DNA from: Phycisphaeraceae bacterium
GTDB lineage: Bacteria > Planctomycetota > Phycisphaerae > Phycisphaerales > Phycisphaeraceae
Assembly: GCA_965230275.1 (NCBI GenBank)
Contig: CBDDKO010000002.1
Location: forward strand, 1,541,294 to 1,605,293
DNA: 64,000 nt
Reading direction: 5' to 3'
The notes beneath the pieces are model-generated. The model had not been told where the DNA came from, did not search any database, and saw nothing but the letters and a program-made list of their open reading frames with translations. This document shows, one piece after another, positions 8,857-26,501 of the stretch (positions are counted from its first letter, which is position 1; the number at the start of each line of letters is the position of its first letter). A program made the position numbers and the translations under genes.

Positions 8857-8980
8857 GGAGGCAGACTAAGCGGGCTTGCCCGTGCCGTCCTCAGAGTATA
8901 CTCTACATTTGGGGTTGAGCGAGCGGTTCGGCTGATCAGTCGCCTTGCCCTGCCCAATTTGTAGCCGCCTGGGGAAGCCT

Positions 8981-9526: not shown

Positions 9527-9550
9527 GCCCCCCAAACAGACGTTGATTGC

Positions 9551-10276: not shown

Positions 10277-10439
10277 GATCGAGATTATCCCACATGATCG
10301 GATTGATTTCAGTTGCCAGCAATACCCGCCTTACCCGTTTTCCTGGAGACGAAAAATATTTTCTGCCGGATTCAAACTTCAGGCTTGAACCGGGACACCG
10401 GGAGCATACTATACGAAAAATAGAAATACAAATACCGTA

Positions 10440-11057: not shown

Positions 11058-11078
11058 CGGGGCGGAGTTGGAGAAGAC

Positions 11079-11480: not shown

Positions 11481-11971
11481 GCCCTAAATGGATCATCGAC
11501 ATTTTCAAGGCATGGCGATGCGACGGCTGTCGAAAGCCGTTGTTCCCGACCGAGATCGAACGGATCGGCTTGGAGTATCGGCTCTCGTTTGGGGATCGGC
11601 GTGATCCTTTCGTCTTTATGGAAGTCCGCTGCTCATGCTGCCAGGAGACCTACCGGCTTTCCCAGCAGCGGAAACTTAAGGAAGTTCAGGATGCCATAGC
11701 CGCCTGCCACTTCTATCTGTTCCAAGGTCCGCCGAAGCGGGATACACGGTCGGGCTGCGCTGCGGCGATGAAGACTAAGCATGCTCAGCAATCCGGTCGG
11801 TTGAAGTTTCCATTTGCCACGCCGATGAGCGATGCCAAGGTCCGAGCTTTCTTGAATCGGTTGGAGCGGACCTCATTCAAGCGGAACACCAAGAGCTACC
11901 GGAAGTGGATGCTCGATTTGGGCGTGGACATTGATAAGAAAGGAGCGGGAGCTGACGACATCCCCTTCTAG
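11477..11971 (+). CDS. Hypothetical zinc-ribbon protein (164 aa)
   Basis: Internal ATG of ORF 11393..11971 gives MSPKWIIDIFKAWRCDGCRKPL...VRCSCCQETY (CxxC pair). The ATGA overlap with the preceding gene indicates translational coupling. Confidence 0.6.
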   Translation: MSPKWIIDIFKAWRCDGCRKPLFPTEIERIGLEYRLSFGDRRDPFVFMEVRCSCCQETYRLSQQRKLKEVQDAIAACHFYLFQGPPKRDTRSGCAAAMKTKHAQQSGRLKFPFATPMSDAKVRAFLNRLERTSFKRNTKSYRKWMLDLGVDIDKKGAGADDIPF

Positions 11972-12248
11972 CCTTGCCTCAAATTCTGCTCAGCTTCCCG
12001 CTGGGCACTATGCGGTGGCGGGTGACGGGGTAGCCTTAAAAGAGAAAAATTCTGCCGGGATGGGGCTTGGGGAGAAAAATTCGAAATTGGGTAAAAAAAT
12101 TTTCACCCCCTCCCCATTTCCCCGTAATACTCCTCCAATTCACATCTTAAGGCTTTCTCGCAGCGCCTTGATTGACGGCAATTTACCTGAATTCGAAGGT
12201 GGAAGCCCGTTAAGCGCCAGGATTAGCGAGCCCCCTGGTATCCGCATC

Positions 12249-12575
12249 ATGGATACCTCAATCGACAAGCTGATCCGACCAACCGACCCCAATCCTGTTG
12301 ATTGGGATGAACGGCTGACAGATGCCAACAAGCGGACTCGCAAGGGCGTCAAGCTCTCGATGCGAGAAGTCCGCTCCATGATTGAGATTTGGGGGCTACC
12401 TCCGTTCCTCACCGCAGATGAAGCCGCCAAGATTTCAAATCGATCAACGTCTGTCCTACGCAACCATGTCAGCGAAGGTCGCTTCCCCCGCAGCGCGATC
12501 GTCGGAAAGCCGTTGACCTTCGTTACGACCCGTTTCATCCAAGAAGTAGCGGCTCGATTGGGGGGAAGCGTATGA
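12249..12575 (+). CDS. Excisionase / MerR-like helix-turn-helix DNA-binding protein (putative)
   Basis: Internal ATG (12249) of ORF 11931..12575. PFLTADEAAKISNRSTSVLRNHVSEGRFPRSAIVGKPLTF resembles the Xis/AlpA-type HTH_17 pattern. Its stop overlaps the integrase start (ATGA at 12572-12575). Confidence 0.55.
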   Translation: MDTSIDKLIRPTDPNPVDWDERLTDANKRTRKGVKLSMREVRSMIEIWGLPPFLTADEAAKISNRSTSVLRNHVSEGRFPRSAIVGKPLTFVTTRFIQEVAARLGGSV

Positions 12576-13714
12576 GATGGGCAGACAGCCATCCAGTCGA
12601 AGGGACCGATCCGAAGGTCTTCATCGGCAGACCGACCCGGCGCGATCCGAAGACTGGTAAGCTCAAAGCGTCCAGCGTCTTTCATGAGCGTTACAGCCTC
12701 AATGGTCGCCAGGTCACCCGAACGCTTCGTACTAGCAACAAGAAGGTTGCGATCCGCCGGGTCATCGAGCGGCAGTCTAATGGACAGACTGAAACTCGAC
12801 CTCAAGCCTCTATTAGTATCGCTGAAGGGTTGGATGAGTACCTACGGGTATGCAGGGACAGGGATTTGTCCCCCAGGACGGTTCAGAAGTATGAGTTGGT
12901 CGTCCGAGGGATCAAAGAATCATTGGGCAGGCAGGCAGATGATCCCGTCTCGATCTTCAGCGAGCGGGAGTTCTGGTCGTACAACCGCTCGATGACGGAA
13001 GCGGGCACTAACCGGAAGACTCGATATGACCGCTTAATCGTTGTCAAACAAGCGATGAAATACCTGAAGCGGGTCGGGTATATCTCCACCTACCCCTTGG
13101 AGTCGGTACGCCTCTCAAAGCCTGAATCTAGACCGCAGCCTTGTTTTACCTTTGATCAGGTCCAAAAGCTATTGGAAATGGCTGACGAGTACCAGCGCCC
13201 GATCTTTGCGACATTTGCCTTTGCCGGTCTGAGATTTGGGGAGGTCCGAGACCTTCGATGGTCTGACCTGCTACTGGATCGGGGCGATACGGGCTTTATT
13301 CGAGTTTCCCGGGGCGGTTCTCGGGATATGCCCAAAGATCATGAGTCTCGCTTGATCCCCATCCACCCTCAGCTTCGCAGCATGCTGGATGAGGTAACGG
13401 GACAGAGCGGACGCATCTTCTATGACAGGGACGGGATTCGCCCGCTCTGCGAGAAGAAGCTGTTACTTGCTCTGAAGCGCCTCTGCGAGACATGCCGCTT
13501 CGAGAATGCTCTGAAGTTCAAGCTGCATTCGTTCAGGCATTTCTTCTGTTCGGCAGCAGCGCAGAACAATGTTTCGTACCGCTATGTAATGGCTTGGTTG
13601 GGGCATTCAGACAGCAAGATCGTTGATATGTACTTCCGCATGTTCGATGACGCCGCCGAACAGGCGATGGCTTCGATTGGATTTGGGGATAAATCGGAGA
13701 GAAATCAAGGATAG
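12572..13714 (+). CDS. Tyrosine recombinase / phage-type integrase
   Basis: 380 aa. The C-terminal catalytic signature is FAGLRFGEVRDLRW (Arg I) followed by LHSFRHFFCSAAAQNNVSYRYVMAWLGHSDSKIVDMYF (H-x-x-R ... W/L-G-H ... Y). An N-terminal SAM-like core-binding region is present. Confidence 0.9.
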   Translation: MRWADSHPVEGTDPKVFIGRPTRRDPKTGKLKASSVFHERYSLNGRQVTRTLRTSNKKVAIRRVIERQSNGQTETRPQASISIAEGLDEYLRVCRDRDLSPRTVQKYELVVRGIKESLGRQADDPVSIFSEREFWSYNRSMTEAGTNRKTRYDRLIVVKQAMKYLKRVGYISTYPLESVRLSKPESRPQPCFTFDQVQKLLEMADEYQRPIFATFAFAGLRFGEVRDLRWSDLLLDRGDTGFIRVSRGGSRDMPKDHESRLIPIHPQLRSMLDEVTGQSGRIFYDRDGIRPLCEKKLLLALKRLCETCRFENALKFKLHSFRHFFCSAAAQNNVSYRYVMAWLGHSDSKIVDMYFRMFDDAAEQAMASIGFGDKSERNQG

Positions 13715-13720
13715 AAGAAG

Positions 13721-13933
13721 GTGCGCACGACTAACACTGAGAATATGAATACACAACGTGGTATTGCTGATCAGCTTCAATCTGAGATCACGCTAGCGGG
13801 CATCAAAGTTGAGGTAACTATTGTCCGCATGACCCCAGACGAGGAAAGCCATTTCGATAGGGAACTGCAAATGGTGATCAGCTATTTAGTCCGCCAGATG
13901 CGCGGGCAGGAGATTAGTAAAGATGGAAGGTAG
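13721..13933 (+). CDS. Small hypothetical protein (70 aa, GTG start)
   Basis: This is the only ORF filling the gap between the two recombinase genes, and it overlaps the next start by 11 nt. No motif. Confidence 0.3.
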   Translation: MRTTNTENMNTQRGIADQLQSEITLAGIKVEVTIVRMTPDEESHFDRELQMVISYLVRQMRGQEISKDGR

Positions 13934-15917
13934 TAATAGCAAGGGTAGGTATGAGGGTAGGCGTGCGGTGCTGATGCCCCGCGCCAGCACGAAAAAGCAG
14001 GGGATTAGCGTTGAAGACCAGATTAAGCAGATGAGGGCGTTCTGCGCGCAGCATGGCATCACCGAGGTGGCGATCATTGGTTGCGCAGGTATATCAGCTA
14101 GCAAGTACTGGAGTCGTAGCGACTTCAAAGAGGCGCGAGATCGAAAGCGTACGCAGGATGACTTTGATCTCTTAGTCATCTACGACTCATATCGATTCTC
14201 CAGGGCTGGCATAATCAAAGGATCAAACGAAATCTGTGAACTCGAAGCTGAGGGCATCGATATCCTGCTTAGCACTGAGGATATTCTCGATGGTCCTGAT
14301 GGCGAAATGCAATGGGCCCAGAGGCTTGCCGCTGCCCATGCTCAAGCTCGTCAGATTAGCAAAACATCATGTAGGGGAATGCAGTCGTCAATTGAGTCCG
14401 GCCGCTCTCTGCCATGCAAACGAATACCGTTTGGTTTAGAGAAGGTGGTCCGGTATCCATCAGGTCAGATTAGGCATGTCATACGAGGCTTGCGTGATGG
14501 CTCGCAAGAGGTATATGACGGCGTGACTGGGAAACTTGTTCAATCTTTCCCATCCATCCAAAACGGCATGGGTTCCCGCTACATCAAGCAGAAAGAAGAT
14601 TTAGAAGACCTTCGCCCGGGTAATGAGGATGACATTGCCGTTGTCATTCAGATATTTACACGCAAGTTCATGGATGGTTGGGGTGCTCGCAGAATCGCTA
14701 AGGAATTAAACGAAAAGGAGGTTCTAAGTCCAAAGAATGGGCTATGGAGCCCAAGTACTGTTAATCATATCCTGAGGAATCCTGCCTATGTGGGCTACGT
14801 CATTGGTAATCAGAGTTCAGTAGCGATCTATTACCAATGCTCAAAAAATGAACCCCAGAAAGTTGTCAAAGATGCCCGGCATAGAACTTCAAAGCAGGCT
14901 CCCCCACAAAGAATACGACCAGAAAAAGATTGGACGATCATCGAGCAGCCATTGATGAATGATTTCTTGCCTGGTCAATTTCGAGAGGTTGCTCGGGAGT
15001 ATATTCGTCGTAGCAAACTCATGAGTGCAAAGCATGCTGGTAAATATACACATAATAGAAGCAGGCATACCAAATCGCCGTATCTGTTAACAGGAAAATT
15101 GATGGAAATCCGAAGCGGGCTCCGCATGAAAGGTCACAGTTGCGGTAAACAGAGGTATTACAGGATTGCAGAGGCAGATTCTCATCCAGGTGTAGTTACC
15201 CCGAAGCCCCATCAAATTCGATCTGAGGGTATTGATGCAGTTGTAACCAGCGCTATCCACGGCGTTCTGACCAAATCGAATAAATATCGAGATAAGATTT
15301 GTGAAGAGATCGACACCCAGCGTCGTGCTGCAAGCATCTCTGGGGTCAAAGCAGACCAACTAAGGGCGGAACGTAAGGCGCTGGATCAAGACTGCCGCTA
15401 TATCCATAGAAATCGGAAGGAATATGGGGAGGACATGACTCTCAGTCTGATTGAGGAGAACAGAGCGAGATGTGAGGAGATCGACTGTAAACTGGCTGAC
15501 GCATCACGCCAGGACACTATATGGGGGAAAGATATCGACAAAAAAGTTGATGAGCTATTAGCTCAGTTGGTGGAGGTGTCAGGTTGGGTCAAAGACGGGC
15601 CAAGCGCTTCTGTCAAGCGTTTGCTTCAAACATTGGTCAGTAAAGCAACCGTCAACACCAAAACCAAAGAGCTACAAGTCGAATTTCGAGTCCCCAAGAG
15701 CGTCTATGATAATCCGCAATCACTTTGTCTGGAGCCCGATTCAGCATTCCAAGTCGGGTACGAGACAAACTACGAGATGTCCCTGCCACTAACCAAACTC
15801 AGATTCATCTACCAAGACGGCAAATACTCCATGATCGAGCGTATCGACCCCAAGCCGCCAAAAGACACACTACCAACCCCGAAGAACACCGGCAAGAAGC
15901 CAAATGGACAGCAGTAA
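13923..15917 (+). CDS. Large serine recombinase (resolvase/invertase N-terminal domain + recombinase domain + coiled-coil/zinc-ribbon region)
   Basis: 664 aa. RRAVLMPRASTKKQGISVEDQ carries the catalytic-Ser motif of resolvase-type domains. The region ...PFGLEKV...RIAKELNEKEVLSPKNGLWSPSTVNHILRNPAYVGY... is the typical 'Recombinase' domain of large serine recombinases. Confidence 0.88.
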   Translation: MEGSNSKGRYEGRRAVLMPRASTKKQGISVEDQIKQMRAFCAQHGITEVAIIGCAGISASKYWSRSDFKEARDRKRTQDDFDLLVIYDSYRFSRAGIIKGSNEICELEAEGIDILLSTEDILDGPDGEMQWAQRLAAAHAQARQISKTSCRGMQSSIESGRSLPCKRIPFGLEKVVRYPSGQIRHVIRGLRDGSQEVYDGVTGKLVQSFPSIQNGMGSRYIKQKEDLEDLRPGNEDDIAVVIQIFTRKFMDGWGARRIAKELNEKEVLSPKNGLWSPSTVNHILRNPAYVGYVIGNQSSVAIYYQCSKNEPQKVVKDARHRTSKQAPPQRIRPEKDWTIIEQPLMNDFLPGQFREVAREYIRRSKLMSAKHAGKYTHNRSRHTKSPYLLTGKLMEIRSGLRMKGHSCGKQRYYRIAEADSHPGVVTPKPHQIRSEGIDAVVTSAIHGVLTKSNKYRDKICEEIDTQRRAASISGVKADQLRAERKALDQDCRYIHRNRKEYGEDMTLSLIEENRARCEEIDCKLADASRQDTIWGKDIDKKVDELLAQLVEVSGWVKDGPSASVKRLLQTLVSKATVNTKTKELQVEFRVPKSVYDNPQSLCLEPDSAFQVGYETNYEMSLPLTKLRFIYQDGKYSMIERIDPKPPKDTLPTPKNTGKKPNGQQ

Positions 15918-15991
15918 TATTCACATGAATTAACTGCGACAGGCTGACCTCTGGGTGCGGTGAGGGCATAATAGCCCGAGCCGCGCTCAGA

Positions 15992-16465
15992 TCAGCTAAC
16001 CATCTCATCGTCGGCGATGTCGTTTCCAATTACATAGGTTCTCCCCACCTTTGTGATGGACATAATTCGTCCATTCTGTTCCACGTGGACGCGGCATCCC
16101 AGATACTCAAAATCCCTGACTCGGGTGGAGATTTCCTTTGGGCTGTCAGAGCCGTATTTCGTGACCCTGCGACCATCCTCTGTAGTCTCGACGACTTGGA
16201 ACTTGAACCGCTCTGGATTCTCGCTGCCTAATCCGTCAAGCTCGTTCCGGTGGACGGCAGCAATCCAGTCAAGCGCAGCAGAGATGGTGTCAGTACGTCG
16301 ATCCTTATATAGACTCCTGAGATCAAGCAGCCCTGCGACGATCTTTGGGGTCAGCCTGGGATTATTGCGCTTCCGTATTTTGCCCATGACCGCCTCGATT
16401 CCTTGATGAACGGGATAGTCACACGTTGTCATGAGTAGGCTATGGGCTGATGTGATGTCCAGCAA
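15992..16465 (-). CDS. Hypothetical protein (up to 157 aa; alternative start MGKIRKR at 16387)
   Basis: ORF in low-GC DNA with no recognisable motif. Confidence 0.5.
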   Translation of the reverse strand: MLDITSAHSLLMTTCDYPVHQGIEAVMGKIRKRNNPRLTPKIVAGLLDLRSLYKDRRTDTISAALDWIAAVHRNELDGLGSENPERFKFQVVETTEDGRRVTKYGSDSPKEISTRVRDFEYLGCRVHVEQNGRIMSITKVGRTYVIGNDIADDEMVS

Positions 16466-16522
16466 GAGGGGGGCAGGTCAAAACGATGTCATACTAAGAT
16501 TGATATACTATCATCATCTGGC

Positions 16523-16963
16523 ATGGCCCGAACTAAGCAGACTAAACTGACCAGACATGTTTCCGATGTGCCGGAAGCTCGTCGTCGCATTATGCGCGCA
16601 ATCGGACAGAAAGATACAAAGCCAGAAGTCATTGTACGACAAATCCTGCATCAGCTAGGTTACAGATTTCGACTTCATGTACCAAGTCTACCAGGCCGAC
16701 CAGATATTGTTCTGCCTCGCCACCGCAAGATAGTATTCGTGCATGGATGCTTTTGGCATCAACATGGTTGTGGCATGGCCGGTACTCCGCATAATCGGAA
16801 GCAGTTCTGGAAAGATAAATTCCTGAGAAACAAAGAGCGGGACCGGGCAAACATCTCCTCGCTTCAGTCTGCCGGTTGGGATGTGTTGGTTATATGGGAG
16901 TGCGAGACATTAGACACGGATATGCTCCGTGAGAAATTGCTAACTTACATGTTGTCTAAGTAA
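16523..16963 (+). CDS. vsr: Very short patch repair endonuclease
   Basis: 146 aa. RRIMRAIGQKDTKPEVIVRQILHQLGYRFRLH...LPGRPDIVLPRHRKIVFVHGCFWHQHGC...FWKDKFLRNKERDR...GWDVLVIWECE shows the full Vsr signature (TKPE, D-I-V, FVHGCFWH, W-x-x-K-I-x-x-N). It is adjacent to a C5 methyltransferase. Confidence 0.93.
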   Translation: MARTKQTKLTRHVSDVPEARRRIMRAIGQKDTKPEVIVRQILHQLGYRFRLHVPSLPGRPDIVLPRHRKIVFVHGCFWHQHGCGMAGTPHNRKQFWKDKFLRNKERDRANISSLQSAGWDVLVIWECETLDTDMLREKLLTYMLSK

Positions 16964-17834
16964 CCGTCCATAACTCATGATGTTCGTCAAGTATCTTGGC
17001 TAGGTCATGTAAATTGTCTAAGTGAGATAGATAATTCTTGCGTATAGCTCGACATTTGTCTCGCGTTACACTTACAGATTCCAAGCGTTTATTTATGCCT
17101 TTTAGAACGATTTCGCCATCCCCTGATCTCTCCCAATCTCCATGAGCAAAGATATTTCTGTAATGGATAATATCATCGGGGAGCGTTTTTAAGATCGACT
17201 TGATAGCATCGATCTTCTGGCACATCTTATTGTCGTCCGCCTGAAAAGCCTTATCTCGCATGTCATCAAGAGCTCTCTTCACAAACACATGCTTCTTGGC
17301 AAAGTCGTACGGAGAATTATCACCCTTCACGATCTTCTCTAAGTAGAACTTCTTGCGCCCTCCAAGATAGTTTGCCATAATGTCAGCAAGATTATTCTCG
17401 ATCTTTATAGCCTCAGACACAATAATACCGCGCATCGTATTTAGATTGATAGTTCTTTCAATATGATTCTCGACAATCTCGCGTAGAGAGTCTTCCACAT
17501 CATTACGCTCTCGGTAATATACGCCATCTAGCTTTGTGTCGCCCTTGATGGCGTGGATACCATCCGCCGAATAGAACAATACTTCTCGATACCTTTCAAG
17601 CTTCCGAATCTGCTTGATGACTTCATCACCTTTGGTGCCCTGGAGGTTCCAGTCTACTGCAATGAGAGACAACTCTGGGTCGGGTAATATATCCGGCAAG
17701 TCTGGCGGCCGGTCGTAATACACCGACTGATACTGAAATCCTTCATCTTGTAACATGTCCTCGATCGCACTGCTAATAGACTCAACCCATTCGGGCGTGT
17801 CATCGATCCACATGATCTTGTAGGTGAGACTCAT
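16956..17834 (-). CDS. Receiver (REC)-like domain fused to a HEPN-like domain (R-x4-H) - putative effector of the dcm-linked cassette
   Basis: 292 aa. The N-terminus fits a CheY-like pattern: KIMWIDDTPEW (acidic pair D11/D12), LIAVDWNLQG (D61 at the phospho-acceptor position) and VLFYSADG (S89, 28 residues after D61). The C-terminal helical domain contains IIHYRNIFAHGDW (R226-N-x3-H231, codons 17159-17142), the R-N-x3-H form of the HEPN RNase motif. Its start overlaps the stop of the upstream ATPase gene (ATGA at 17831-17834). Confidence 0.6.
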   Translation of the reverse strand: MSLTYKIMWIDDTPEWVESISSAIEDMLQDEGFQYQSVYYDRPPDLPDILPDPELSLIAVDWNLQGTKGDEVIKQIRKLERYREVLFYSADGIHAIKGDTKLDGVYYRERNDVEDSLREIVENHIERTINLNTMRGIIVSEAIKIENNLADIMANYLGGRKKFYLEKIVKGDNSPYDFAKKHVFVKRALDDMRDKAFQADDNKMCQKIDAIKSILKTLPDDIIHYRNIFAHGDWERSGDGEIVLKGINKRLESVSVTRDKCRAIRKNYLSHLDNLHDLAKILDEHHELWTVT

Positions 17835-20206
17835 TTCGCAAAACAGAGTATGAACTCTGCCCCCTTGGCATAACCTTCATTAAATGTAACTGTGCCGCCT
17901 GATTGCAACATTAACGTCTTGATGTGATAGAGTCCAAGGCCTGATCCGTTTGTTGTAGTGAACCCAAAATCAAATAATTTCGCCGCATGCTTGGGGTCTA
18001 TGCCGCTGCCATTATCACGCACGCTCAAGACAAGCATCCCATCTTGAATATCCACCATTCGGAATTCGATCTTTGTTGCACCGGCCTTGCGCGAGTTGCT
18101 GATTAGATTGTCGATTATTATCGTAATCTCGATTGGTCGAAATGCAGCATCATAGGAAATCGTATTCTTAGTTTTGCATATGATCTCTACAGGATCGCCA
18201 TGACGCGTAAACACTATATCCGCACATACATTTTCTATGTACTCACGAATAAAGCCGACTAGATCAGCAGTCATCTCTGTTGCGCTGAGTACAAAATTCG
18301 CTTTGGTGGCAAATCTCGCAGTAGAATCGATCTTTGTGGCCTGGTAGCTGATCTTGCCCAACATTGCCTTGACGTATTCCGTTGTCAACGGTTTGTTAAG
18401 CTTTATCCGTCGGTTTATCTCTTTAATGTTGTTTTGTATAGTATCCGCAGCAATTGCTATGTGATGGTGAAGGCTGACTACATGTTCATAGTCTGTAGAT
18501 ATTACTGACTTCAGGAATAAGTTTTCTGTCTTTCTTCTGTCGGCTTCTTCCTCTGCTTCTTTGGTTTGACGACGAGACTCACGCGCTTCTGCCTCTGCCT
18601 TTGCCGCCTCTTCTTCAGCGGCTTTCGCCTTCTCAGTAGCTTCTTCTGCACGTGCCTGTGCCGAAGCGGCTTCTGCCTCAGCTTCATCTCTCGCCTTTTG
18701 CAATTTTCGTAGTTGGCGTCTAGCCCTACGTGCTTCGCGAGCAAGCTCGTCGCTTCCGGATTCCTCAGCAATACGCTCGAAATTCTGCAACAGGCCCTTT
18801 ACACTGGATTCGGAGATGTTCTCATATATATTTATGAAATTAGGGTCATATTGAATGTCAAGTACATCCTTGGATTTTGCCAGAGATGCAATGATTTCGA
18901 ATATCTTGGATTTGATTTCACCTTCTGAGGATATGTCGAGATCATTAAGGTCAATTGTCTTCCCCCATTTAATTACATCAACCGTAAACCTTTCCAAGCG
19001 ACGTAGGCAGTATGCCACAAAAAATTCTTTGAGCGCCGCAAATGCTCTATTCTTGATTAAACCGCCATCTCGACTACTGGTTTCCTTAAATTCATGGTTC
19101 TCGCCATTAATTTCGATTCGACCGATGAGTTCGCGGGAGCCAATGTAGCGAGCCGTGCCCTGTTGCTTTCGGCGGTCAATACCAAGCGAATCTTCACCTT
19201 CGTCTCCAAATGGGTAGATTCGGAATCCATTTTTGAATAAAAAGACCGATCCAAATTGAACTGCTGGGATGCCCATGCGGCGTGTGAAATATGCTTTAGC
19301 AGATGGGCTTAAGACAAATAGATATACCGATATGTTCTTGAGAAGTTCGCTGTAAGGATTTGATTCCACGAGTTCATATATGAGAACACCACGATCTTCT
19401 AGTCTTGTTGTGATCTGTTTACCATCTTCGGATATATGTACAACAATACTAGTTGTGCGAACCTCAAGGTCCTCAAACAAGAAGTTCGTAATCTTTCCAT
19501 TGACACGCTCCCACGGCGCATCCTCGGGAACCTCCTGATCCTTATGGCGCTCTTCTGCTACTTTAAGATGAATAGAAAAGCGCCTGCTATCATTACCTTG
19601 GTTGGGATTGATCAGGCGTTCCAGAGACCTTCTTAGCTTGAGTAGTTTATCGCGACCCCAGTCTTCTCTTAAATTACCTATTACAAGGAGCGTTCCAGAG
19701 TCAAGCTTGTGCTCGATTGACCTTAAACGGGAGTAATCTACGGGTACGGAACGAAACTCTCTCTGGTCATCAGCTTCAAATGACTCCCAGTCAATATTGA
19801 TGTGTTGATATTCACTCCGCTCCCGCTTTTTAGAATACAACTTAAGTGTGCTTCCAAGCTTGTCACATGAAAATCTGCCAATCCCCTTTGCGCCAGCCTT
19901 AATGCGATTTGATTGGATTTTATCTCGATAATCTTCAATGCCGTGTTTTTTGGCTGAATAGGCGACAAACAACCACTTCTCAAGGATGTCATTTCGATCC
20001 ATCCCTTTGCCGTTATCTTTTATCAACAGCTTTGGCTCTTCGCCATAGATGTCTATGAACTCAATATCGACTCTTGTTGCATGAGCATCAAAGGCATTTT
20101 TGACTAGCTCAAAGACAGCAATAATGTCATTGGTAATGAGTTCCTTGCCAATGATGGTCTTTAGTGCAGAGCTGATACGAAAATGTGGAGCTTCTGTTTT
20201 AGCCAT
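17831..20206 (-). CDS. Dual Bergerat-fold (GHKL) ATPase: N-terminal MORC/Hsp90/MutL-like HATPase + coiled coil + C-terminal histidine-kinase-type catalytic domain
   Basis: 791 aa. N-terminal N-box is FELVKNAFDA (E33, N37, D40), G1 box is IKDNGKGM and G2 is GAKGIGRFS. A central Ala/Glu/Lys coiled coil follows (RDEAEAEAASAQARAEEATEKAKAAEEEAAKAEAEARESRRQTKEAEEEADRRK), then an H-rich helix (VSLHHHIAIAADT). The C-terminus has a complete HK catalytic core: N box IDNLISNSRKAGA, G1 VRDNGSGI, F box FDFGFTT and G2 GSGLGLYHIK. Its start overlaps the dcm stop by 8 nt. Confidence 0.75.
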   Translation of the reverse strand: MAKTEAPHFRISSALKTIIGKELITNDIIAVFELVKNAFDAHATRVDIEFIDIYGEEPKLLIKDNGKGMDRNDILEKWLFVAYSAKKHGIEDYRDKIQSNRIKAGAKGIGRFSCDKLGSTLKLYSKKRERSEYQHINIDWESFEADDQREFRSVPVDYSRLRSIEHKLDSGTLLVIGNLREDWGRDKLLKLRRSLERLINPNQGNDSRRFSIHLKVAEERHKDQEVPEDAPWERVNGKITNFLFEDLEVRTTSIVVHISEDGKQITTRLEDRGVLIYELVESNPYSELLKNISVYLFVLSPSAKAYFTRRMGIPAVQFGSVFLFKNGFRIYPFGDEGEDSLGIDRRKQQGTARYIGSRELIGRIEINGENHEFKETSSRDGGLIKNRAFAALKEFFVAYCLRRLERFTVDVIKWGKTIDLNDLDISSEGEIKSKIFEIIASLAKSKDVLDIQYDPNFINIYENISESSVKGLLQNFERIAEESGSDELAREARRARRQLRKLQKARDEAEAEAASAQARAEEATEKAKAAEEEAAKAEAEARESRRQTKEAEEEADRRKTENLFLKSVISTDYEHVVSLHHHIAIAADTIQNNIKEINRRIKLNKPLTTEYVKAMLGKISYQATKIDSTARFATKANFVLSATEMTADLVGFIREYIENVCADIVFTRHGDPVEIICKTKNTISYDAAFRPIEITIIIDNLISNSRKAGATKIEFRMVDIQDGMLVLSVRDNGSGIDPKHAAKLFDFGFTTTNGSGLGLYHIKTLMLQSGGTVTFNEGYAKGAEFILCFAK

Positions 20207-21566
20207 CGTTTACCATTCTACGAAGAATCCGTCCAGCGAATTCAGCGAACAGCGGTGGTACAGCATTGCCAATCTGGGTGTAGCGTGGAACAGCCTTTCG
20301 TCGCAGCAAGCCACCGGTGGTGTAGCTGCCTCTAAATTCGAAACAATCCGGGAACGATTGGATGCGCGCGTATTCTCGTACAGTTAAGATGCGGGGTTCG
20401 CAGTAATGGACATAATCGTCAGGAATACTCATCAAGGTCGGGGCTGGACATGCCTCGTCTAAGAGGGTTGTGTTGCGCTTATTTAAACCATATTTTTCGC
20501 GATCTCCGCCCTGAATCCTAACGTTCGGTTTAGCACTACGAATTACCGTTTTAAATGCTTTTGTTGTAGATGCGGTATGCTTTGCGTATCTGTGGCTATC
20601 GGGACTGGCGCTACAGTCGATGGCTTGCCTCATTAATTTTTGGAAGTTCGTGCGGGCAGGGCCATAAGTACCCGCTTCGAATGAGGGGCTATCTAATGAA
20701 ATGACTGTGCCGTGCCTACGTTCAAGATCGCTGATCGCAGCATAAGTGGAGGGTCTTTTTGATATGCCCTTATCCAAAAGAAATGACTTACGCTCAGATT
20801 GTAGAAGTTCAAAGAATGTATCTGCGTTACCTTTTCGTGTAGCTACAAGTATGAACCGTTCGCGCCTCTGAGGGACACCGAATCTAGAAAAGTTAACAAT
20901 ATCAGCAGAGGCATCGGAATATCCTATGGACTTCAATCTATCGATTATTCGATTCGAGTATGAGGTATGTCTCCTGTTGCTTTTATCGAATGGAATCGTG
21001 AAGCCGCGCACATTCTCGAAAAGAAGAATATCGGGCTGTACCAATTCAACAAAACGCAGGTAAGAGGAGCAGAGGGTATTACGAGGGTCAGATCGTTGCC
21101 GCTTACCCTCGGTAGAAAATCCTTGGCAAGGTGGTCCGCCAACAACGAGCGGTACTTTGCCACGTAGCATTACGAGTTGCTGGCGATATTTCCGTAGGAC
21201 CGAGTTTATGTTGTGCTCCGATACTGGAAGCCAGCGAGGCCAGTGGAAGTGATTCTCCCGGTCAATAAGGTTATGGCGTAGTGTAGAAAATGCCATGTCG
21301 CTCTTCTCAATTGCGAACATGCCTGTCCAGCCAGCCTTCATCATGCCATAGGACAGACCCCCGCAGCCAGCGAAGAGATCGATGTAAGTAAGGGCGCTAT
21401 TCTTGGCTGTCGATGCCTTAGAAGACCGACGCCTGTCAACCCGCTTTCTAGACGTGCTGCTGATGTTCTGTCTCCTATTAGTGCTACGGCATCCGGATGG
21501 TCTAGTCGTATATCGACCCCTGTAAGTATTACGCATGAGGGAAGATAGATCAAATCTAGATATCAT
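20199..21566 (-). CDS. dcm: DNA (cytosine-5)-methyltransferase
   Basis: All canonical C5-MTase motifs are present: I YIDLFAGCGGLSYG, IV GGPPCQGFS, VI LLFENVRGF, VIII PQRRERF and X GNAVPPLF. It has an Arg/Ser-rich ~60-aa N-terminal extension, so the true start may be further downstream. Confidence 0.93.
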   Translation of the reverse strand: MISRFDLSSLMRNTYRGRYTTRPSGCRSTNRRQNISSTSRKRVDRRRSSKASTAKNSALTYIDLFAGCGGLSYGMMKAGWTGMFAIEKSDMAFSTLRHNLIDRENHFHWPRWLPVSEHNINSVLRKYRQQLVMLRGKVPLVVGGPPCQGFSTEGKRQRSDPRNTLCSSYLRFVELVQPDILLFENVRGFTIPFDKSNRRHTSYSNRIIDRLKSIGYSDASADIVNFSRFGVPQRRERFILVATRKGNADTFFELLQSERKSFLLDKGISKRPSTYAAISDLERRHGTVISLDSPSFEAGTYGPARTNFQKLMRQAIDCSASPDSHRYAKHTASTTKAFKTVIRSAKPNVRIQGGDREKYGLNKRNTTLLDEACPAPTLMSIPDDYVHYCEPRILTVREYARIQSFPDCFEFRGSYTTGGLLRRKAVPRYTQIGNAVPPLFAEFAGRILRRMVNDG

Positions 21567-21620
21567 AGCCTATGCTTGAGTAGCATTGTTGGGATAGCAG
21601 CATGGGTCCGGATAAGTTGA

Positions 21621-21896
21621 CTATTCCTGAGGCCTGAATGGCGTCATCCGCTCACATTCCTCCGCTTGTGACTCAACCAGGCTAACCCGCCTCTCCTCAA
21701 ATTCCTCATACCGCTCCCTGACCGCCTCTTTCAACTCCTCCGGCACCCCCTCCTCCCCCACGACCATCATCATCACTTCTCTCAGCTTCGCTTCAGCTAT
21801 TTGAGCTAGGAGTTTGTCGTATCTGCCCTTGGTTATGGCTATCCGGAGGATGATCTTGGGGTCAGTCTTTTTATCTGAAGAATTGGATTTGCCCAT
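21621..21896 (-). CDS. Small acidic helical hypothetical protein (91 aa) upstream of dcm
   Basis: ORF on the same strand, 55 nt upstream of dcm. Sequence is Glu/Arg-rich and helical (EELKEAVRERYEEFEERRVSLVESQAEE). No known motif recognised. Confidence 0.45.
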   Translation of the reverse strand: MGKSNSSDKKTDPKIILRIAITKGRYDKLLAQIAEAKLREVMMMVVGEEGVPEELKEAVRERYEEFEERRVSLVESQAEECERMTPFRPQE

Positions 21897-22028
21897 CGCA
21901 GGACCTCCTGGGGATGAGGGGGAGGTTGATGGGTATGTGTTCGACGGGAGGGGGTCGGGTTCCTCCTAAGATTGTTGGCAATCATGTTCGCGCGGTAGAC
22001 TGTAAGGGTCATTCTTAGGGGACATCTC

Positions 22029-23453
22029 ATGGCAAAAGCGAAAAAGCGACGGTCAGTATTTGCGAAAGTGGTTGATACCAAGAAGCAGCATCCACGATTC
22101 AAAATCCTCAAGAACAGGAGGACTCTACGACCTGCGCGTTGGATGTTGAATGAGATATATAAGACTTACGAGGATATTGACGGTAATTTTCTAGAGCAGT
22201 TCCAAAGCAATGGATTTGATGCCCGCTACTTCGAATTATATCTCCACGCCTATTTCTCTAGAACAGGATTTCAGATTGATCGACCTAAGCCTGCTCCCGA
22301 CTTCATCGTTGAACGCGACAGCATCAAGGTTGCAGTCGAAGCGACAACTGTTAATCCGTCAACTACTGGGGCTGTAGCGAAGCATGGTAAGAAGATTAAG
22401 GAGATGTCGCAGGACGAATACTTGGAATACCAACATCAGGAGCTGGCCATCCGTTTTGGTGGACCACTCGTCACCAAACTAAAAAAGAAGTACTGGAATA
22501 AGAGGCAGTGCAAGAATCTGCCTTTGGTTCTAGCAATCGAAGCATTTTATGATGAAGAATCGCTCGCATTTACTGACCTTGCCTTGAGTCGGTATGTGTT
22601 TGGGATAGATCAAACGGGTAAATGGTCAAAAGCCGGAAAACTCAAAATAAAAAGTAAGAAAGTCACGAAGCACAAGCTAGGGAGCAAGGTAATCCCCTCT
22701 GGTTTCTTCAAATTACCAGACTCAGAACACATAAGCGCCATTATGTTTACCAACAGTGGAACAAATGCCAAGTTCCTCAGGATGGGGTTCCAGCACGGCA
22801 TCGATAACGACAGAATTGTCCTGGTTCGACAAGGAAAGTCGTATGACTTTAACCCAGACGCCATCGATCCGTGTCACTTCTCATACAACCTTGATTGTCC
22901 GCCATTGGTTGAATCATGGGGGCAAGGTTTAGTCGTGCTGCATAATCCAAACTGTATCCATCCAATTCCACGAGGATATTTTGCTGGCGCTGTAGACCAT
23001 TATATGGACAGCAATCGTATGGCATCTGAGTTGACGGGCTGGCATCCCATGTCATCCCATACTTTTATCTTTGACCTTAATGAGGCAAAAGCCAAGGTGT
23101 CAAAGCTTCCTATTCGAACTCCATCAATCGCAGTTGCATCAATACCAAAACGAGAGTTCCAGGCAATAATTGGAATTAACCATGACAACAACCCTATTCT
23201 AGAAGAATCGGGCTGGTTCACGGATGAGACCACCTCATTCTTAAGCGTATTGTTTCGAGATAAAGTGGACAATGATTGGGGAATGGCGATTCTCGCCAGA
23301 GATTCGCTAAGCAGATTCCGAGCAATTGAAACCAAATCTAGCCTTAGTAGCCGTGAAGAAGCGAGAGACGAAATGTATCGAGCGATGGTGAAGTACTTGG
23401 CAAGCCCTAAGAGAATATTCGAGCAAGGCGATGAATTTGATGGCAGAGCTTAG
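22029..23453 (+). CDS. Hypothetical 474-aa protein, possible PD-(D/E)xK-like nuclease core at N-terminus (very tentative)
   Basis: Divergent from the dcm operon. YFELYLHAYFSRTGFQIDRPKPAPDFIVERDSIKVAVEATTV has an E...PD...(V)E-x-T spacing reminiscent of PD-(D/E)xK, but the Lys is not canonical. The rest is unrecognised. Confidence 0.55.
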   Translation: MAKAKKRRSVFAKVVDTKKQHPRFKILKNRRTLRPARWMLNEIYKTYEDIDGNFLEQFQSNGFDARYFELYLHAYFSRTGFQIDRPKPAPDFIVERDSIKVAVEATTVNPSTTGAVAKHGKKIKEMSQDEYLEYQHQELAIRFGGPLVTKLKKKYWNKRQCKNLPLVLAIEAFYDEESLAFTDLALSRYVFGIDQTGKWSKAGKLKIKSKKVTKHKLGSKVIPSGFFKLPDSEHISAIMFTNSGTNAKFLRMGFQHGIDNDRIVLVRQGKSYDFNPDAIDPCHFSYNLDCPPLVESWGQGLVVLHNPNCIHPIPRGYFAGAVDHYMDSNRMASELTGWHPMSSHTFIFDLNEAKAKVSKLPIRTPSIAVASIPKREFQAIIGINHDNNPILEESGWFTDETTSFLSVLFRDKVDNDWGMAILARDSLSRFRAIETKSSLSSREEARDEMYRAMVKYLASPKRIFEQGDEFDGRA

Positions 23454-23495
23454 AGTATTAGTATTTGTTGGTTTGGGAGGACACGGAAAACGTCA

Positions 23496-24047
23496 GTGTA
23501 CTATACCGCCACCGGGTTCGGGAATCACGTCATGGCAGAAGAACCACAAGCAGAATTAGAGAACAATGAACGCCCCCCAGCATCTGAGCTAGAGGTTAAG
23601 TTGTTGGATCAATTCCTCAAGGATGGCACCATTCCATCGAAGGAAGATCGCAACAGGCGTATAAGAGAAATGCGTGACATATTTGTTGATCATGTCAAGC
23701 GCAAGTCAAAACATGAGGGCGTCAAATCCAATTCTATTTATGAACAAACTCAACTCTGGTATGCCGGGATGACTAGTAAAGACCCGGAAAAGGATCGGAG
23801 GCCAAAACATAATAACGACGAGAAGATGAACTCAACAAAGCACTGGATGTCGCTACCAGCACCCGATTTTGAAACGGCGTGGAAACTTGAACAACTGTTA
23901 CAAGTCGAGTATGGATTTCATAGGGGGAAAGATGACGATGATGAGAAAAGCCTAAAACGACCAGCCCCAAAGGATTCGTTGCATAGCGTGTATATTTTCT
24001 ATGCCCCTATGAATTCTGCTGACGAAGTTCGTAAACGGCTCCTTTGA
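23496..24047 (+). CDS. Hypothetical protein (183 aa; alternative ATG start at 23532)
   Basis: ORF in low-GC DNA. Charged, lysine/aspartate-rich sequence with no recognised motif. Confidence 0.45.
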   Translation: MYYTATGFGNHVMAEEPQAELENNERPPASELEVKLLDQFLKDGTIPSKEDRNRRIREMRDIFVDHVKRKSKHEGVKSNSIYEQTQLWYAGMTSKDPEKDRRPKHNNDEKMNSTKHWMSLPAPDFETAWKLEQLLQVEYGFHRGKDDDDEKSLKRPAPKDSLHSVYIFYAPMNSADEVRKRLL

Positions 24048-24243
24048 GTCTTTGACGATATTGTTCATATCGATCATTCAATCGTTTGTAGTCATCTTCA
24101 TTTGTGCAAAGTGTTCGCATGTCTCTTAGCGCAATGTCTGCTAAATCCCAAATATGCTTGAAGTATTGAAAGTTATCCCAATCTGATTCTAGAAGATCAA
24201 GTCCCAGGCAGTCATTGTCTGTAGAGTTTGTTGTCATGGTCAT
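24007..24243 (-). CDS. Hypothetical protein (78 aa)
   Basis: ORF convergent with the previous gene, with a 41-nt overlap. No motif. Confidence 0.4.
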   Translation of the reverse strand: MTMTTNSTDNDCLGLDLLESDWDNFQYFKHIWDLADIALRDMRTLCTNEDDYKRLNDRYEQYRQRLKGAVYELRQQNS

Positions 24244-24506
24244 CAGCTAGCCTCCATATTGGCAATGATATCACTCTTGGCCTTCGATACACCCTTGGTA
24301 TTTCCTTTGTTGTAGTAGAAAAATTCATACTTAGTCGGTACGATCTCCCGTTCCCGATTCTTTCCCGATCTCAGGGATGACAAATCCCCCCTGAATCATG
24401 ACGGATCATGATGAAACCGAGAGTGAATTTAAAGGTTAACCTGCTCTGGTGCAGGGCTTAGAGGTTATAATCGCTGATTGGGGACTGTGGGGCTGGATTT
24501 GCTGGA

Positions 24507-24525
24507 CGAATCCCTCCCTCTCCGC
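24507..24525 (+). repeat. 19-bp direct repeat copy 1 (CGAATCCCTCCCTCTCCGC), tRNA 3'-end-like; putative att site
   Basis: Exact 19/19 match with 28112-28130. The sequence looks like the end of a T-loop (..CGAAT), a T-stem 3' half (CCCTC) and an acceptor 3' strand (CCTCTCC + G), as in a tRNA starting GGAGAGG (Ser/Leu-like). A shared TGGATTT lies 6-9 nt upstream of both copies. Confidence 0.6.
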
Positions 24526-24533
24526 TTTACCAG

Positions 24534-24577
24534 AACCCGCTTCCCTAAGCCTTTAGGTAAGCGGGTTTTGTGTTTTT
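24534..24577 (+). terminator. Rho-independent terminator
   Basis: AACCCGCTT (24534-24542) pairs with AAGCGGGTT (24559-24567). An inner CCTAA/TTAGG extension is present and the stem is followed by TTTTGTGTTTTT. It sits immediately 3' of the tRNA-end-like repeat. Confidence 0.7.
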
Positions 24578-24803
24578 GGCCATGGGCTATATACCCCGGT
24601 GGACCAAAATTGGACCAATATCCAGCCCACATACGAGCCTTGTATGTTTCAGGTGCTGCCTTTCGTTGGCATGTGTGGTTGTCTTCTGCACAACCTCGAC
24701 CCAGTTGATGTTGCGGTCGAATAACTTCTGTGTTCGCTTGCTCTACCTCAGCCACGGGAACTCATAACATAGACCAAGATGGGGGTTATTCCTGCGAACG
24801 TAG

Positions 24804-26054
24804 ATTAATAGCCTCCCGACTCTCAAGCGCGGCAACGCAGCTAATTCAGAGCGGACGTTTACATATGATGATGGCACGACATGGAATCCGCCGGCGGGAT
24901 TGCAGGCTGAAATTAAAAAGGACACGGTCTCCTACGACATCGATGAAGACACGAACGACGAGACGGTCGAGGTGTACGTATTAAGCCTGACCGGACGCGG
25001 CCAGGGACACCAGTACACGTTCTGGGGGTTCGAGACCCAGATCCCGGAAGCCATGCGGGGCCGCATCTACAAGAAGACCGATCGCTACGGCGAGGAAGAG
25101 CTGACCTACGCACTACAGGACGCCCACTTTCACATCACCACACTAGCCGACACCACTGGCGCCGCCGTCGAACGCTGTAGTTACACTCCCTACGGCGAAC
25201 AGACCATCCTCGATGCAGACTTCACCATTGACTCGGGCGGCTCAGACTACAACTGGACTCATGGCCACCAGGGCCTGATGCATGATCCTGAGACCGGTCT
25301 GATCCAAAACCGATATCGAATACGTCACGCACTGCTAGGACGGTGGCTGCACAGGGAGCCCTTAGGGTATGTGGATGGGATGAGCCTGTATCAGTATGTA
25401 AGATCGCAACCGCTCTATTTTGTTGATCCGACAGGACTTGAGGCAGAGGTTATCGACGAAGCATATTATGGTGGGACGGGTGAGTTATATGTTCCCGAGG
25501 GTTGGTGGGAAGAAGCGAATGCCCTAGATGAGATGGTAGAGTGGGTGCAGCCAGATAAATTCCCTGATCCGGATTCAAATAATAAATGGTCAAGGGAGTA
25601 TCGTGAAAACTTTGCGCACTATGTAAAGGATATATACGCCACATACCAAGACATCTTTCAGGGACAAGACGGGTGTTGCGTGTTGGATCCTTGCACCTTG
25701 GCCGCCCAGTGGATGGGTGAATCATCGTGGGGCACGTCGGGACTATCGAAAGATGCGTATAACTTTGGCGGTATTAAAGGGGAAGGACCTGCAGGCCATT
25801 ATGACTCGGAGACGGGCGAGCATTTCGACGGGCAAGATGTGACTATTGTGGATGAATTCAGAGCATATAATAATATACTAGAGTTCATGGATGACTACAC
25901 TCGCTTGATATGCAAGTATGATATATATGAAGACGCGAGAGGAAAATCTGGTGAAGAGTATTATTCAGCGATTAAAAGTGCAGGATATGCGACAGATCCC
26001 AGTTATGTAGATAAGAATATGCAACTATACAATCAGCTTGGGTGCGGTCAATGA
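24804..26054 (+). CDS. Orphan RHS C-terminal fragment: last YD repeats + RHS core end (DPxGL) + C-terminal glucosaminidase-type peptidoglycan hydrolase toxin domain
   Basis: The frame is open from the stop at 24801 and the ORF track starts at TTG 24900. It shows a YD-like repeat (ERTFTYDDG), then CSYTPYGEQT...RYRIRHALLGRWLHREPLGYVDGMSLYQYVRSQPLYFVDPTGLE, the RHS core terminus. Next comes AAQWMGESSWGTSGLSKDAYNFGGIKG...FRAYNNILEFMDDY...SAGYATDPSYVDK, which fits mannosyl-glycoprotein endo-beta-N-acetylglucosaminidase / FlgJ-like domains. No full-length RHS shell lies upstream. Confidence 0.8.
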   Translation: MNSLPTLKRGNAANSERTFTYDDGTTWNPPAGLQAEIKKDTVSYDIDEDTNDETVEVYVLSLTGRGQGHQYTFWGFETQIPEAMRGRIYKKTDRYGEEELTYALQDAHFHITTLADTTGAAVERCSYTPYGEQTILDADFTIDSGGSDYNWTHGHQGLMHDPETGLIQNRYRIRHALLGRWLHREPLGYVDGMSLYQYVRSQPLYFVDPTGLEAEVIDEAYYGGTGELYVPEGWWEEANALDEMVEWVQPDKFPDPDSNNKWSREYRENFAHYVKDIYATYQDIFQGQDGCCVLDPCTLAAQWMGESSWGTSGLSKDAYNFGGIKGEGPAGHYDSETGEHFDGQDVTIVDEFRAYNNILEFMDDYTRLICKYDIYEDARGKSGEEYYSAIKSAGYATDPSYVDKNMQLYNQLGCGQ

Positions 26055-26458
26055 AAACCTTGATAACCTATTTATGTATTTTAGTAGCAGTGGCCTGTCT
26101 TAATTCATGTAGCGATGCTTCCGAATCTGAGGTTCAAGTACAAAGCGAACAACTAATAATTGAATTGAATAATGTGCCGGAAGAGTGGAAGATTCTTGTG
26201 CTTGATGCAATTGATGGGCTGTCTCTAGCAAATGAAACTCGCTATAGCATCATTGTAGAAAAAAACGAGGATTGGCATTTTCTGGGACATATAGAGTTTA
26301 ACCTGTATGAGGATGGACCGGATATGGTACATCGGATTGATACATATCGATTGACCAGAACAGGGAAATTATATGTGATGAATCTGTTTGCAGATGATTT
26401 AGACGATGTGTGGCGCCCTATTCAGGTCTGTAGTGGCCCAGCAGATTGTGAGCCATAA
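26051..26458 (+). CDS. Putative immunity lipoprotein for the RHS C-terminal toxin
   Basis: The ATG overlaps the toxin stop (ATGA at 26051-26054). MKTLITYLCILVAVACLNSCSD is a signal peptide with a lipobox (LNSC). The small AT-rich gene directly after a polymorphic toxin tip is the usual immunity position. Confidence 0.6.
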   Translation: MKTLITYLCILVAVACLNSCSDASESEVQVQSEQLIIELNNVPEEWKILVLDAIDGLSLANETRYSIIVEKNEDWHFLGHIEFNLYEDGPDMVHRIDTYRLTRTGKLYVMNLFADDLDDVWRPIQVCSGPADCEP

Positions 26459-26501
26459 AATGGCATTAATTCGAGCTGATCACGGGCGTGGAAGCGTTGC
26501 T

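Follow-up and report, generated by a model that had tools for sequence, protein, structure and literature searches.

What does a cytosine DNA methyltransferase have to do with a histidine kinase, and with a receiver protein whose output domain resembles an RNase? This question is raised by a cassette of genes in a 64,000-nucleotide (nt) stretch of DNA from a Phycisphaeraceae bacterium (contig CBDDKO010000002.1); we refer to this whole stretch as the window. The cassette consists of dcm, a gene for a 791-amino-acid (aa) ATPase-kinase, a gene for its 292-aa partner and, facing these, vsr. Our preferred answer, to which we assign a probability of roughly one half, is that the cassette is a mobile, methylation-linked conflict system that serves defence, addiction or both. 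In this proposal, dcm is followed by a fusion of a paraMORC ATPase with a histidine kinase and then by a protein that joins a receiver (REC) domain to a HEPN domain, and vsr is an optional addition.

Operon and domain architecture

Gene coordinates were taken from a six-frame list of open reading frames (ORFs) of the window, and the letters at the junctions were inspected. Three genes follow one another on the minus strand. The first, dcm (20199-21566), encodes a C5 cytosine DNA methyltransferase (PF00145, 1e-48; PADLOC MTase_II, 3e-78), the second (17831-20206) encodes the ATPase-kinase, and the third (16956-17834) encodes the partner. The stop of dcm and the start of the ATPase gene overlap by 8 nt at the junction ATGGCTAA, and the ATPase stop and partner start overlap by 4 nt as ATGA. 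On the plus strand, vsr (16523-16963) encodes a very-short-patch repair endonuclease (Vsr, 2e-26; TIGR00632, 143 bits, above its cut-off); it converges on the partner gene, and the stop codons of the two overlap by 8 nt. An earlier interpretation of this locus, which we call the sequence-only reading, gave the same coordinates and the same three overlaps, and these are confirmed. The 5' end of the dcm frame (21396-21566) encodes an R/S-rich N-terminal extension of ~57 aa. Because the ~400-aa homologues do not have this extension, the true dcm start may lie downstream of the annotated one, or the extension may be lineage-specific.

The 791-aa protein can be divided into four parts. Residues 1 to ~420 (18947-20206, minus strand, as for all domains below) comprise a GHKL ATP-binding domain, matched by HATPase_c_3 at residues 29-151 (1e-25), and a transducer-like middle domain. 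A helical linker and a long E/A/K-rich coiled coil follow (residues ~421-560; 18527-18946), with a helix at 486-555 in the structural model. Next is a DHp-like two-helix domain (residues ~561-640; 18287-18526), in which H581 (codon 18464-18466) is the predicted phospho-acceptor. The protein ends with a histidine-kinase catalytic (CA) domain (residues ~641-791; 17831-18286) that has N, G1 and G2 boxes and is matched by HATPase_c at residues 693-789 (2e-23).

We counted the conservation of ATPase residues across 77 full-length homologues. In the N-terminal domain, E33, N37, D40, D64, G66, G68, G105, K107, G108, G110, R111 and T172 are invariant (77/77), and GHKL motifs I-IV are intact, including the strings D64xGxG68 and G105xKGxGR111. 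Foldseek aligned the N-terminal ~450-530 residues, over 430-530 columns, with SMCHD1 (6mw7), MORC2 (9cdh, including DNA complexes), Hsp90, TopoVI-B and MutL LN40. The C-terminal ~240 residues matched the whole DHp+CA cores of HK853, YycG, EnvZ, CusS and ZraS, with a value of 1.5e-13 for the CA domain against ZraS (9jfj). In a profile of 21 homologues, positions 570-783 align with residues 24-245 of HK853 (4e-10), and the HK853 phospho-acceptor, H260, falls on the middle residue of H580-H581-H582. This residue, H581, is invariant in all 77 homologues; the position after it (582) is H in 53, S in 10, Q in 6 and Y in 2 of them. Approximately invariant residues of the CA domain are D699, N700, N704 and K707, as well as D731xGxG735 and G754xGxG758. 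The linker and coiled-coil blocks are weakly conserved (0.07-0.5), and PADLOC matches of the coiled coil to JetC and DndD are spurious. We conclude that the 791-aa protein joins a GHKL ATPase of the MORC/SMCHD1-like type, through a coiled coil, to a complete DHp+CA histidine-kinase core. The sequence-only reading had proposed a MORC/MutL-type GHKL domain, a coiled coil, a helix with an HHH triad and a complete kinase core, and Pfam, profile and Foldseek results agree with it. The triad corresponds to residues 580-582, and the residues it had singled out are conserved (H581, N37 and D64 in 77/77; the G1/G2 boxes in ~77/77).

The partner begins with a REC domain (residues 1-128; 17451-17834) with an acidic pair D11-D12, the predicted phospho-acceptor D61 (codon 17652-17654), S89 and R110. 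The match of the single sequence to Response_reg (8e-5, 23 bits) is under the Pfam cut-off of 30.2 bits. The family profile matches the response regulator 3A0U in the PDB over the full REC domain (1e-8), and in the AlphaFold model of the partner (pLDDT 90.9, pTM 0.84), Foldseek superposes this domain on the receivers of CheY, Spo0F and PmrA with TM values of 0.65-0.75. Across 66 partner sequences, D or E at position 11 and D or N at position 12 are kept, and both D61 and S/T89 are found in 66/66.

The remainder of the partner is a helical, HEPN-like domain (residues 129-292; 16956-17450) with the motif R226-N227-x2-A230-H231 (codons 17142-17159). In the same 66 sequences, R226 is conserved in 65, N227 in 64 and H231 in all; an Rx4-6H-type motif is also invariant in A2, A3 and A4. 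Other near-invariant residues in this domain are R135-G136, K181 and R265. In the up-down helical bundle of HEPN domains, helix 3 ends in this motif and an insert separates helices 2 and 3 (PMC3710099). In the partner model (pLDDT 90.9), the motif ends a helix at 218-231, and a beta-hairpin and then a long helix at 258-284 come after it. The position of the motif thus matches the rule. Moreover, the Pfam families matched by most members, all below threshold, are HEPN families (Swt1 by 9, RiboL-PSP by 7, MAE_28990 by 6, Apea by 3 and Abi_2 by 3), and PADLOC gives weak Cas13b/Csm6 matches. Given the motif, the topology and these convergent sub-threshold profile matches, residues 129-292 very probably form a HEPN domain, and its substrate would presumably be RNA. 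The receiver and the R-N-x3-H motif of the HEPN type, both recognised in the sequence-only reading, are conserved features of the family.

Conservation of the cassette and exchange of its effector

We sought relatives in one genome per species. At least 488 species encode relatives of the ATPase, and the best 80 loci were analysed. These loci cover more than 10 phyla, including Planctomycetota, Pseudomonadota, Bacteroidota, Bacillota, Chloroflexota, Acidobacteriota, Verrucomicrobiota, Nitrospirota, Nitrospinota and Patescibacteria. All 80 contain dcm, nearly always directly upstream of the ATPase gene and usually overlapping its start by 4-8 nt, and 73 of the 80 have a partner homologue directly downstream of the ATPase, mostly with a 4-nt overlap. 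Thus, the expectation in the sequence-only reading that homologues of the two proteins would co-occur is borne out. Its view that vsr is an integral part is not: because vsr is present in 16/80 loci only, we regard it as accessory, and an HhH-GPD glycosylase is at times found in its place. We clustered 1341 flanking ORFs and found no additional conserved gene that might, for example, encode a hidden nuclease. The core of the cassette is dcm followed by the ATPase and the REC-HEPN partner, an arrangement that is far beyond chance.

An exhaustive profile search for the partner found 212 clusters at 50% identity (E <= 1e-30), almost all of them 270-320 aa long and matching end to end. A word-indexed homology search with the 292-aa protein had found 2 relatives only; this was an artefact of sensitivity, given that phmmer on the loci and the profile search find hundreds. 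The partner diverges fastest: its mean identity is 28%, while the ATPase has 47% and dcm 50%. Identities of the ATPase and the partner nevertheless co-vary (Spearman 0.70; Mantel 0/500). The ATPase frame is split in L062 and L075 (region 8001-~10300) and in L095 (halves 1.7 kb apart) by a frameshift or insertion, which suggests that the cassette at times decays or is disrupted by insertion.

In 11 of the 80 loci, the partner is a short, REC-only protein of ~125-230 aa without the Rx4H motif. A stand-alone restriction endonuclease (REase) is encoded in 6 of these 11 loci (7/12 if the truncated locus L034 is counted), as compared to 0 of 63 REC-HEPN loci (Fisher p = 2.5e-6). Examples are an MvaI/BcnI REase (2e-75) inserted between dcm and the ATPase gene, an HpaII REase (5e-144) and an HNH nuclease (2e-12) encoded directly after the receiver gene. 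Family scans found no DNA nuclease in the 63 REC-HEPN loci, and none save Vsr in the cassette of the window. In the window's branch, the HEPN domain takes the slot that a restriction enzyme occupies in sister loci.

Among the related loci is a Flavobacteriia variant (L033, L034, L036, L039 and L078; e.g., L033 4523-6805 and 6802-7986) in which the methylase has 760 aa and an N-terminal Arm-DNA-binding domain, an MvaI/BcnI REase precedes the ATPase and the partner is REC-only. More distant dual-GHKL paralogues, with 23-30% identity over the N-terminal half, are found on three plasmids. The one on a Bacteroides finegoldii plasmid (L081) is accompanied by a REC-like 209-aa protein, an HNH protein and an N6-methyltransferase. 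On plasmid pCA639-1 of Campylobacter armoricus (L082), the REC domain is joined to a C-terminal domain without a known family (340 aa in total) next to dcm, and on a Rhizobium gallicum plasmid (L083) there are a 438-aa REC-like partner, dcm, vsr and a Type II REase. Of 89 plasmid matches, 27 are on Campylobacter plasmids. The complementarity of HEPN domains and REases, together with these paralogues, indicates that the kinase/receiver pair behaves as a constant module that is tied to interchangeable nucleases.

Two accessory genes may have a bearing on the products of the effector and of the methylase. A PNKP-type HAD phosphatase (~150 aa; PF25109, 7e-30) is encoded directly after the REC-HEPN gene in 7 of the 80 loci (L004, L012, L019, L025 at 11210-11683, L029, L032 and L051) and in one viral locus (L085, 7416-7871), and only with HEPN-type partners. 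Its role may be to heal the 3'-ends of RNA, or to serve the RNase as a reset or an antidote; the linkage would fit the production, and possibly the repair, of RNA ends that bear a 3'-phosphate or cyclic phosphate. An HhH-GPD glycosylase is encoded near the cassette in 10/80 loci (L009, L011, L013, L022, L035, L040, L043, L062, L072 and L075; PF00730, 3e-12 in L040). This enzyme probably acts on T:G mismatches and stands in for Vsr.

The cassette is mobile and widespread, as seen in its location on an island, its carriage by prophages and its patchy occurrence across phyla. Of 11 viral contigs in IMG/VR that encode the ATPase, 10 have the full set of dcm, ATPase and REC-HEPN genes. A tblastn search of plasmids with the partner gave no match, nor did a blastn search of Escherichia coli genomes with a gammaproteobacterial homologue. 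In the window, the cassette lies in a low-GC island at ~8000-27000 (44-53% GC vs ~62% elsewhere). This island contains genes for a tyrosine integrase (12572-13714) and a large serine recombinase (13923-15917), and a fragment of an rve_3 (rve-type) transposase gene (26726-27409, minus strand); no tRNA gene was found in the 64,000-nt window. Divergent from dcm is a gene for a homologue of PD-T7-1 (22029-23453, plus strand), a separate, known defence gene, whose product matches the PD-T7-1 model (PADLOC PDLC04073, 9e-137, residues 4-349; phrog_8571, 7e-72). This neighbour marks the region of the cassette as a defence island. A PD-T7-1 homologue also adjoins the cassette on the viral contig L089 (2613-3815) and in none of the 80 genomic loci.

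A 91-aa ORF upstream of dcm (21621-21896, minus strand) has no match in Pfam, NCBIfam, PADLOC or PHROGs and no homologue in the 80 related loci. It is probably outside the system and possibly not a real gene. We rejected both vsr (16/80 loci) and this ORF (0/80) as core parts. A 157-aa ORF that flanks the cassette on the other side (15992-16465, minus strand) also has no match in these four collections. The gene at 24900-26054 (plus strand) encodes an RHS-core-like segment (with the string YVDPTG) and a C-terminal glucosaminidase domain (PF01832, 3e-21), and its product looks like the tip of a polymorphic toxin. The gene is overlapped by a 138-aa ORF (26042-26458, plus strand) that has no family match and is possibly an immunity gene. 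A scan for promoters and terminators gave fewer matches than shuffled sequence and was uninformative.

Relationship to described systems

The closest published description is that of Bellieny-Rabelo, Pretorius & Moleleki (2021; PMC8011034), who reported 644 regions in 628 strains, in silico only. Encoded in these regions are soluble proteins in which HATPase_c_3 and HATPase_c flank a DHp-like HEF_HK domain, along with an adjacent Response_reg_2 protein (91.6% linkage). A C5 methyltransferase is upstream, Vsr is often directly downstream, MvaI_BcnI or HNH proteins are nearby, and descent from paraMORCs was proposed. Because this work reported the same architecture and context, the cassette cannot be called undescribed, as the sequence-only reading had it. 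Overall, that reading holds in its domains, its operon and the plausibility of its relay, and fails in the status of the system and in the integral role of vsr.

Our loci share with the published module the soluble kinase-like protein with HATPase_c_3, a pair of helices with the His, and HATPase_c. They also share the adjacent gene for a response-regulator-like (RR-like) protein, the C5 methyltransferase upstream, Vsr downstream in part, MvaI_BcnI and HNH nucleases in some neighbourhoods, and broadly overlapping taxa. However, there are differences. The partner here has a HEPN domain, while no further domain was recognised in the published RR-like protein; and the core His is followed by H, S, Q or Y here and by E or D there. 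Moreover, the Pfam model PF19191 matched 0/21 ATPases at E <= 0.01, and none at E <= 10 when DHp segments were isolated, and PF19192 matched 0/48 partners, isolated REC segments included, of which 45/48 match PF00072; the presence of either model in our copy of the library is unconfirmed. Precomputed labels of partners are likewise PF00072 or none, and neither model matches the three distant plasmid paralogues. Because PF19191 and PF19192 are unmatched and the H-E/D feature is absent, we treat the lineage of the window as a variant or sister of the HEF_HK/Response_reg_2 kind. The 2021 paper makes no claim of defence. Our analysis adds the assignment of the output domain to HEPN, the finding that this domain and stand-alone REases exclude each other (which is new here and absent from that paper), the presence in prophages and a hypothesis at the level of residues.

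An experimentally studied system with matching logic is Detocs (DtcA/DtcB/DtcC; Rousset et al. 2023, bioRxiv 10.1101/2023.01.24.525353), in which an anti-phage relay from a kinase to a REC-effector protein depends on both the His and the Asp. In Detocs, as predicted here, a histidine kinase passes phosphate to a REC domain fused to a toxic, swappable effector, with abortive infection as the outcome. Detocs is an experimental precedent for an immune relay of this form. However, the sensor here is a MORC-like GHKL module rather than TPRs, the effector is a HEPN domain rather than a PNP ATP nucleosidase, and coupling to a DNA methyltransferase is obligate. The sequence-only reading had noted the lack of a buffer receiver, and we find no gene for one in the window or in the related loci. 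We rejected membership in Detocs given that there is no third receiver gene (DtcB), no TPR sensor and no PADLOC match to the pair.

The N-terminal half belongs with ATPases of the MORC/paraMORC type. These were described in restriction-modification (R-M) systems by Iyer, Abhiman & Aravind (2008; PMC2292703), with C-terminal domains that are nucleases, TIR domains or unknown, and with helicase partners. Both have an intact GHKL module with a transducer, and both are encoded on mobile, R-M-like loci beside Vsr and cytosine methylases; in the 791-aa protein, the GHKL motifs are followed by an S5/transducer-like domain, the fold of which was assigned on a model of moderate confidence. Fusion to a histidine kinase, or a receiver partner, is not mentioned in PMC2292703.

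HEPN RNases, whose active form is a dimer with two Rx4-6H motifs, have been predicted to be effectors linked to R-M systems, including in paraMORC-Ymh HEPN fusions (Anantharaman et al. 2013; PMC3710099). As with PrrC/RloC-like proteins and paraMORC-Ymh, the HEPN domain here would be a second-line or replacement effector in an R-M context, controlled by an ATPase. It differs in that it is located on a separate, receiver-fused protein and that the predicted coupling is by phosphotransfer instead of fusion. The partner's domain is weakly closer to Swt1, RiboL-PSP and MAE_28990 than to Ymh.

The best NCBIfam match of the ATPase is to the GHKL restriction enzymes BbrUII/HgiDII (NF050001; residues 23-198, 1.6e-20), which also accompany 5-methylcytosine (m5C) methylases. 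The nuclease part of these enzymes is absent here. We rejected membership, since the match scores 73 bits against a cut-off of 550 and reaches no further than position 170 of the 659 in the model. A classical Type II R-M system was also rejected: the methylase has no cognate endonuclease here, and there is none in the 63 REC-HEPN loci. Features of class I histidine kinases and response regulators are present, namely the aligned DHp His, the N, G1 and G2 boxes, and a receiver fold with acidic pair, Asp and Ser/Thr. In the literature searched, no system that is named or validated has the composition of the cassette.

A proposed signalling model and its alternatives

The relay from kinase to receiver to HEPN domain that the sequence-only reading put forward is plausible in view of the invariant catalytic residues, the co-evolution of the two proteins (Spearman 0.70) and the defence and mobile context. 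In the steps below, we infer the sensed signal, the direction and effect of phosphotransfer, the RNA substrate and the phenotype. The C5 methyltransferase would mark host DNA as self. The 791-aa protein would dimerise via its coiled coil and DHp domain, and its N-terminal, ATP-driven, MORC/MutL-like module would be the sensor, either of DNA that is unmethylated or foreign or of the coupled methylase's state. The CA domain would turn this output into autophosphorylation of H581, and the phosphoryl group would move from H581 to D61 in the receiver of the partner. Receivers commonly dimerise as a result of phosphorylation. In this case, phosphorylation might drive or rearrange dimerisation such that a composite HEPN site is built from R226, N227 and H231. 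The assembled partner would then cleave RNA, leading to growth arrest of the infected or demethylated cell.

Several observations weigh against this proposal. No PADLOC model matches the pair of ATPase and partner. As the sequence-only reading had anticipated, PADLOC assigns the pair to no named system, and it recognises PD-T7-1 next door. Because PADLOC has no model for the pair, the defence role is assigned by association only. For every member, the proposal is a prediction from sequence. We recognised no sequence-specific DNA-reading domain in the ATPase or the partner, which leaves the match to the methylase's target unexplained. The AlphaFold model of the ATPase is moderate overall (pLDDT 67), though its individual domains are well defined. 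At the canonical Lys position of the receiver (R110), 51 of 66 sequences have R and 7 have K, a conservative deviation. When 48 isolated C-terminal domains were compared to Pfam, all matches were sub-threshold (best E 8e-4), and a profile of this domain against PDB sequences gave chance coiled-coil matches and no solved HEPN. Matches in Foldseek with the whole partner model were all driven by the REC domain, again with no solved HEPN. Finally, 5 of the 11 REC-only loci have no recognised nuclease.

Within the conflict-system proposal, a narrower version is R-M-like immunity in which the REase has been replaced by signalling. A MORC-like clamp would read m5C or the state of the methylase and pass the result through a His-to-Asp phosphorelay to the HEPN RNase. 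We put this version forward tentatively, with more doubt than confidence. If it is true, phosphotransfer of the two-component type would for the first time link the methylation status of DNA to the breakdown of RNA, and bacteria would offer a functional model of the way in which MORC-type ATPases read the state of DNA.

The nearest competitor of the preferred model has the same relay and RNase, but what the ATPase-kinase watches is the methylase, which may be lost, diluted or inhibited by a phage anti-restriction factor, or else the methylation of the genome. The cassette would then be mainly a module for post-segregational killing, or a guard like PrrC/EcoprrI. The 8-nt overlap of dcm and the ATPase gene, which is similar in most loci, suggests a stoichiometric complex of the two products, and outside the methylase there is no domain that reads DNA sequence. 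The mobility of the cassette is also as expected, and HEPN anticodon nucleases that guard R-M enzymes are an established precedent (PMC3710099). However, the N-terminal module is most like GHKL ATPases that clamp DNA (MORC2 with DNA, SMCHD1 and MutL), and the adjacent PD-T7-1 gene suggests an immune role. We consider this explanation unlikely; computationally, nothing separates it from the preferred model.

Less likely still is the regulatory role that was speculated in PMC8011034, in which the kinase-like and RR-like proteins are a two-component system that controls adjacent R-M genes and is not an effector. The REC-only variants are in line with this idea, in that they combine a receiver that lacks an output domain with a normal REase, and such a pair could tune conventional R-M. 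However, 63 of the 80 loci have no REase to control. The output domain of the partner has invariant Rx4H-type residues and, in a Pfam scan, no match to a DNA-binding family, and its rapid, effector-like divergence is atypical of a transcription factor. Repair of T:G mismatches that arise by deamination of 5-methylcytosine, by a MutL-like ATPase with Vsr or a glycosylase and with REC-HEPN as an adaptor, is highly improbable: E. coli MutL is established to stimulate Vsr (cited in PMC2292703) and 26/80 loci have Vsr or an HhH-GPD glycosylase, but 54/80 have neither, the intact histidine-kinase core and the invariant HEPN motif would have no role, and neither domain scan nor fold and profile matching detected a MutL C-terminal endonuclease/dimerisation domain in the 791-aa protein.

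If the preferred model, a methylation-linked conflict cassette with a phosphorelay, is true, it would extend the principle of Detocs, that two-component systems can be immune effectors, to epigenetic sensing, and would constitute a third methylation-based logic of self and non-self, beside DNA cleavage by R-M systems and replication blocking by BREX-like systems. The exchange of REC-HEPN for REC-only proteins with a Type II REase suggests that kinase and receiver are a general licensing module for nucleases. The cassette is compact, with three genes, and each of its predicted catalytic residues is defined, such that it is open to point mutation. It is also a tractable bacterial system for ATPases of the MORC/SMCHD1 type, for which the output of signalling in eukaryotes is not well understood. 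For the published but uncharacterised family of two-component-like proteins to which the cassette is related, the model would supply a function.

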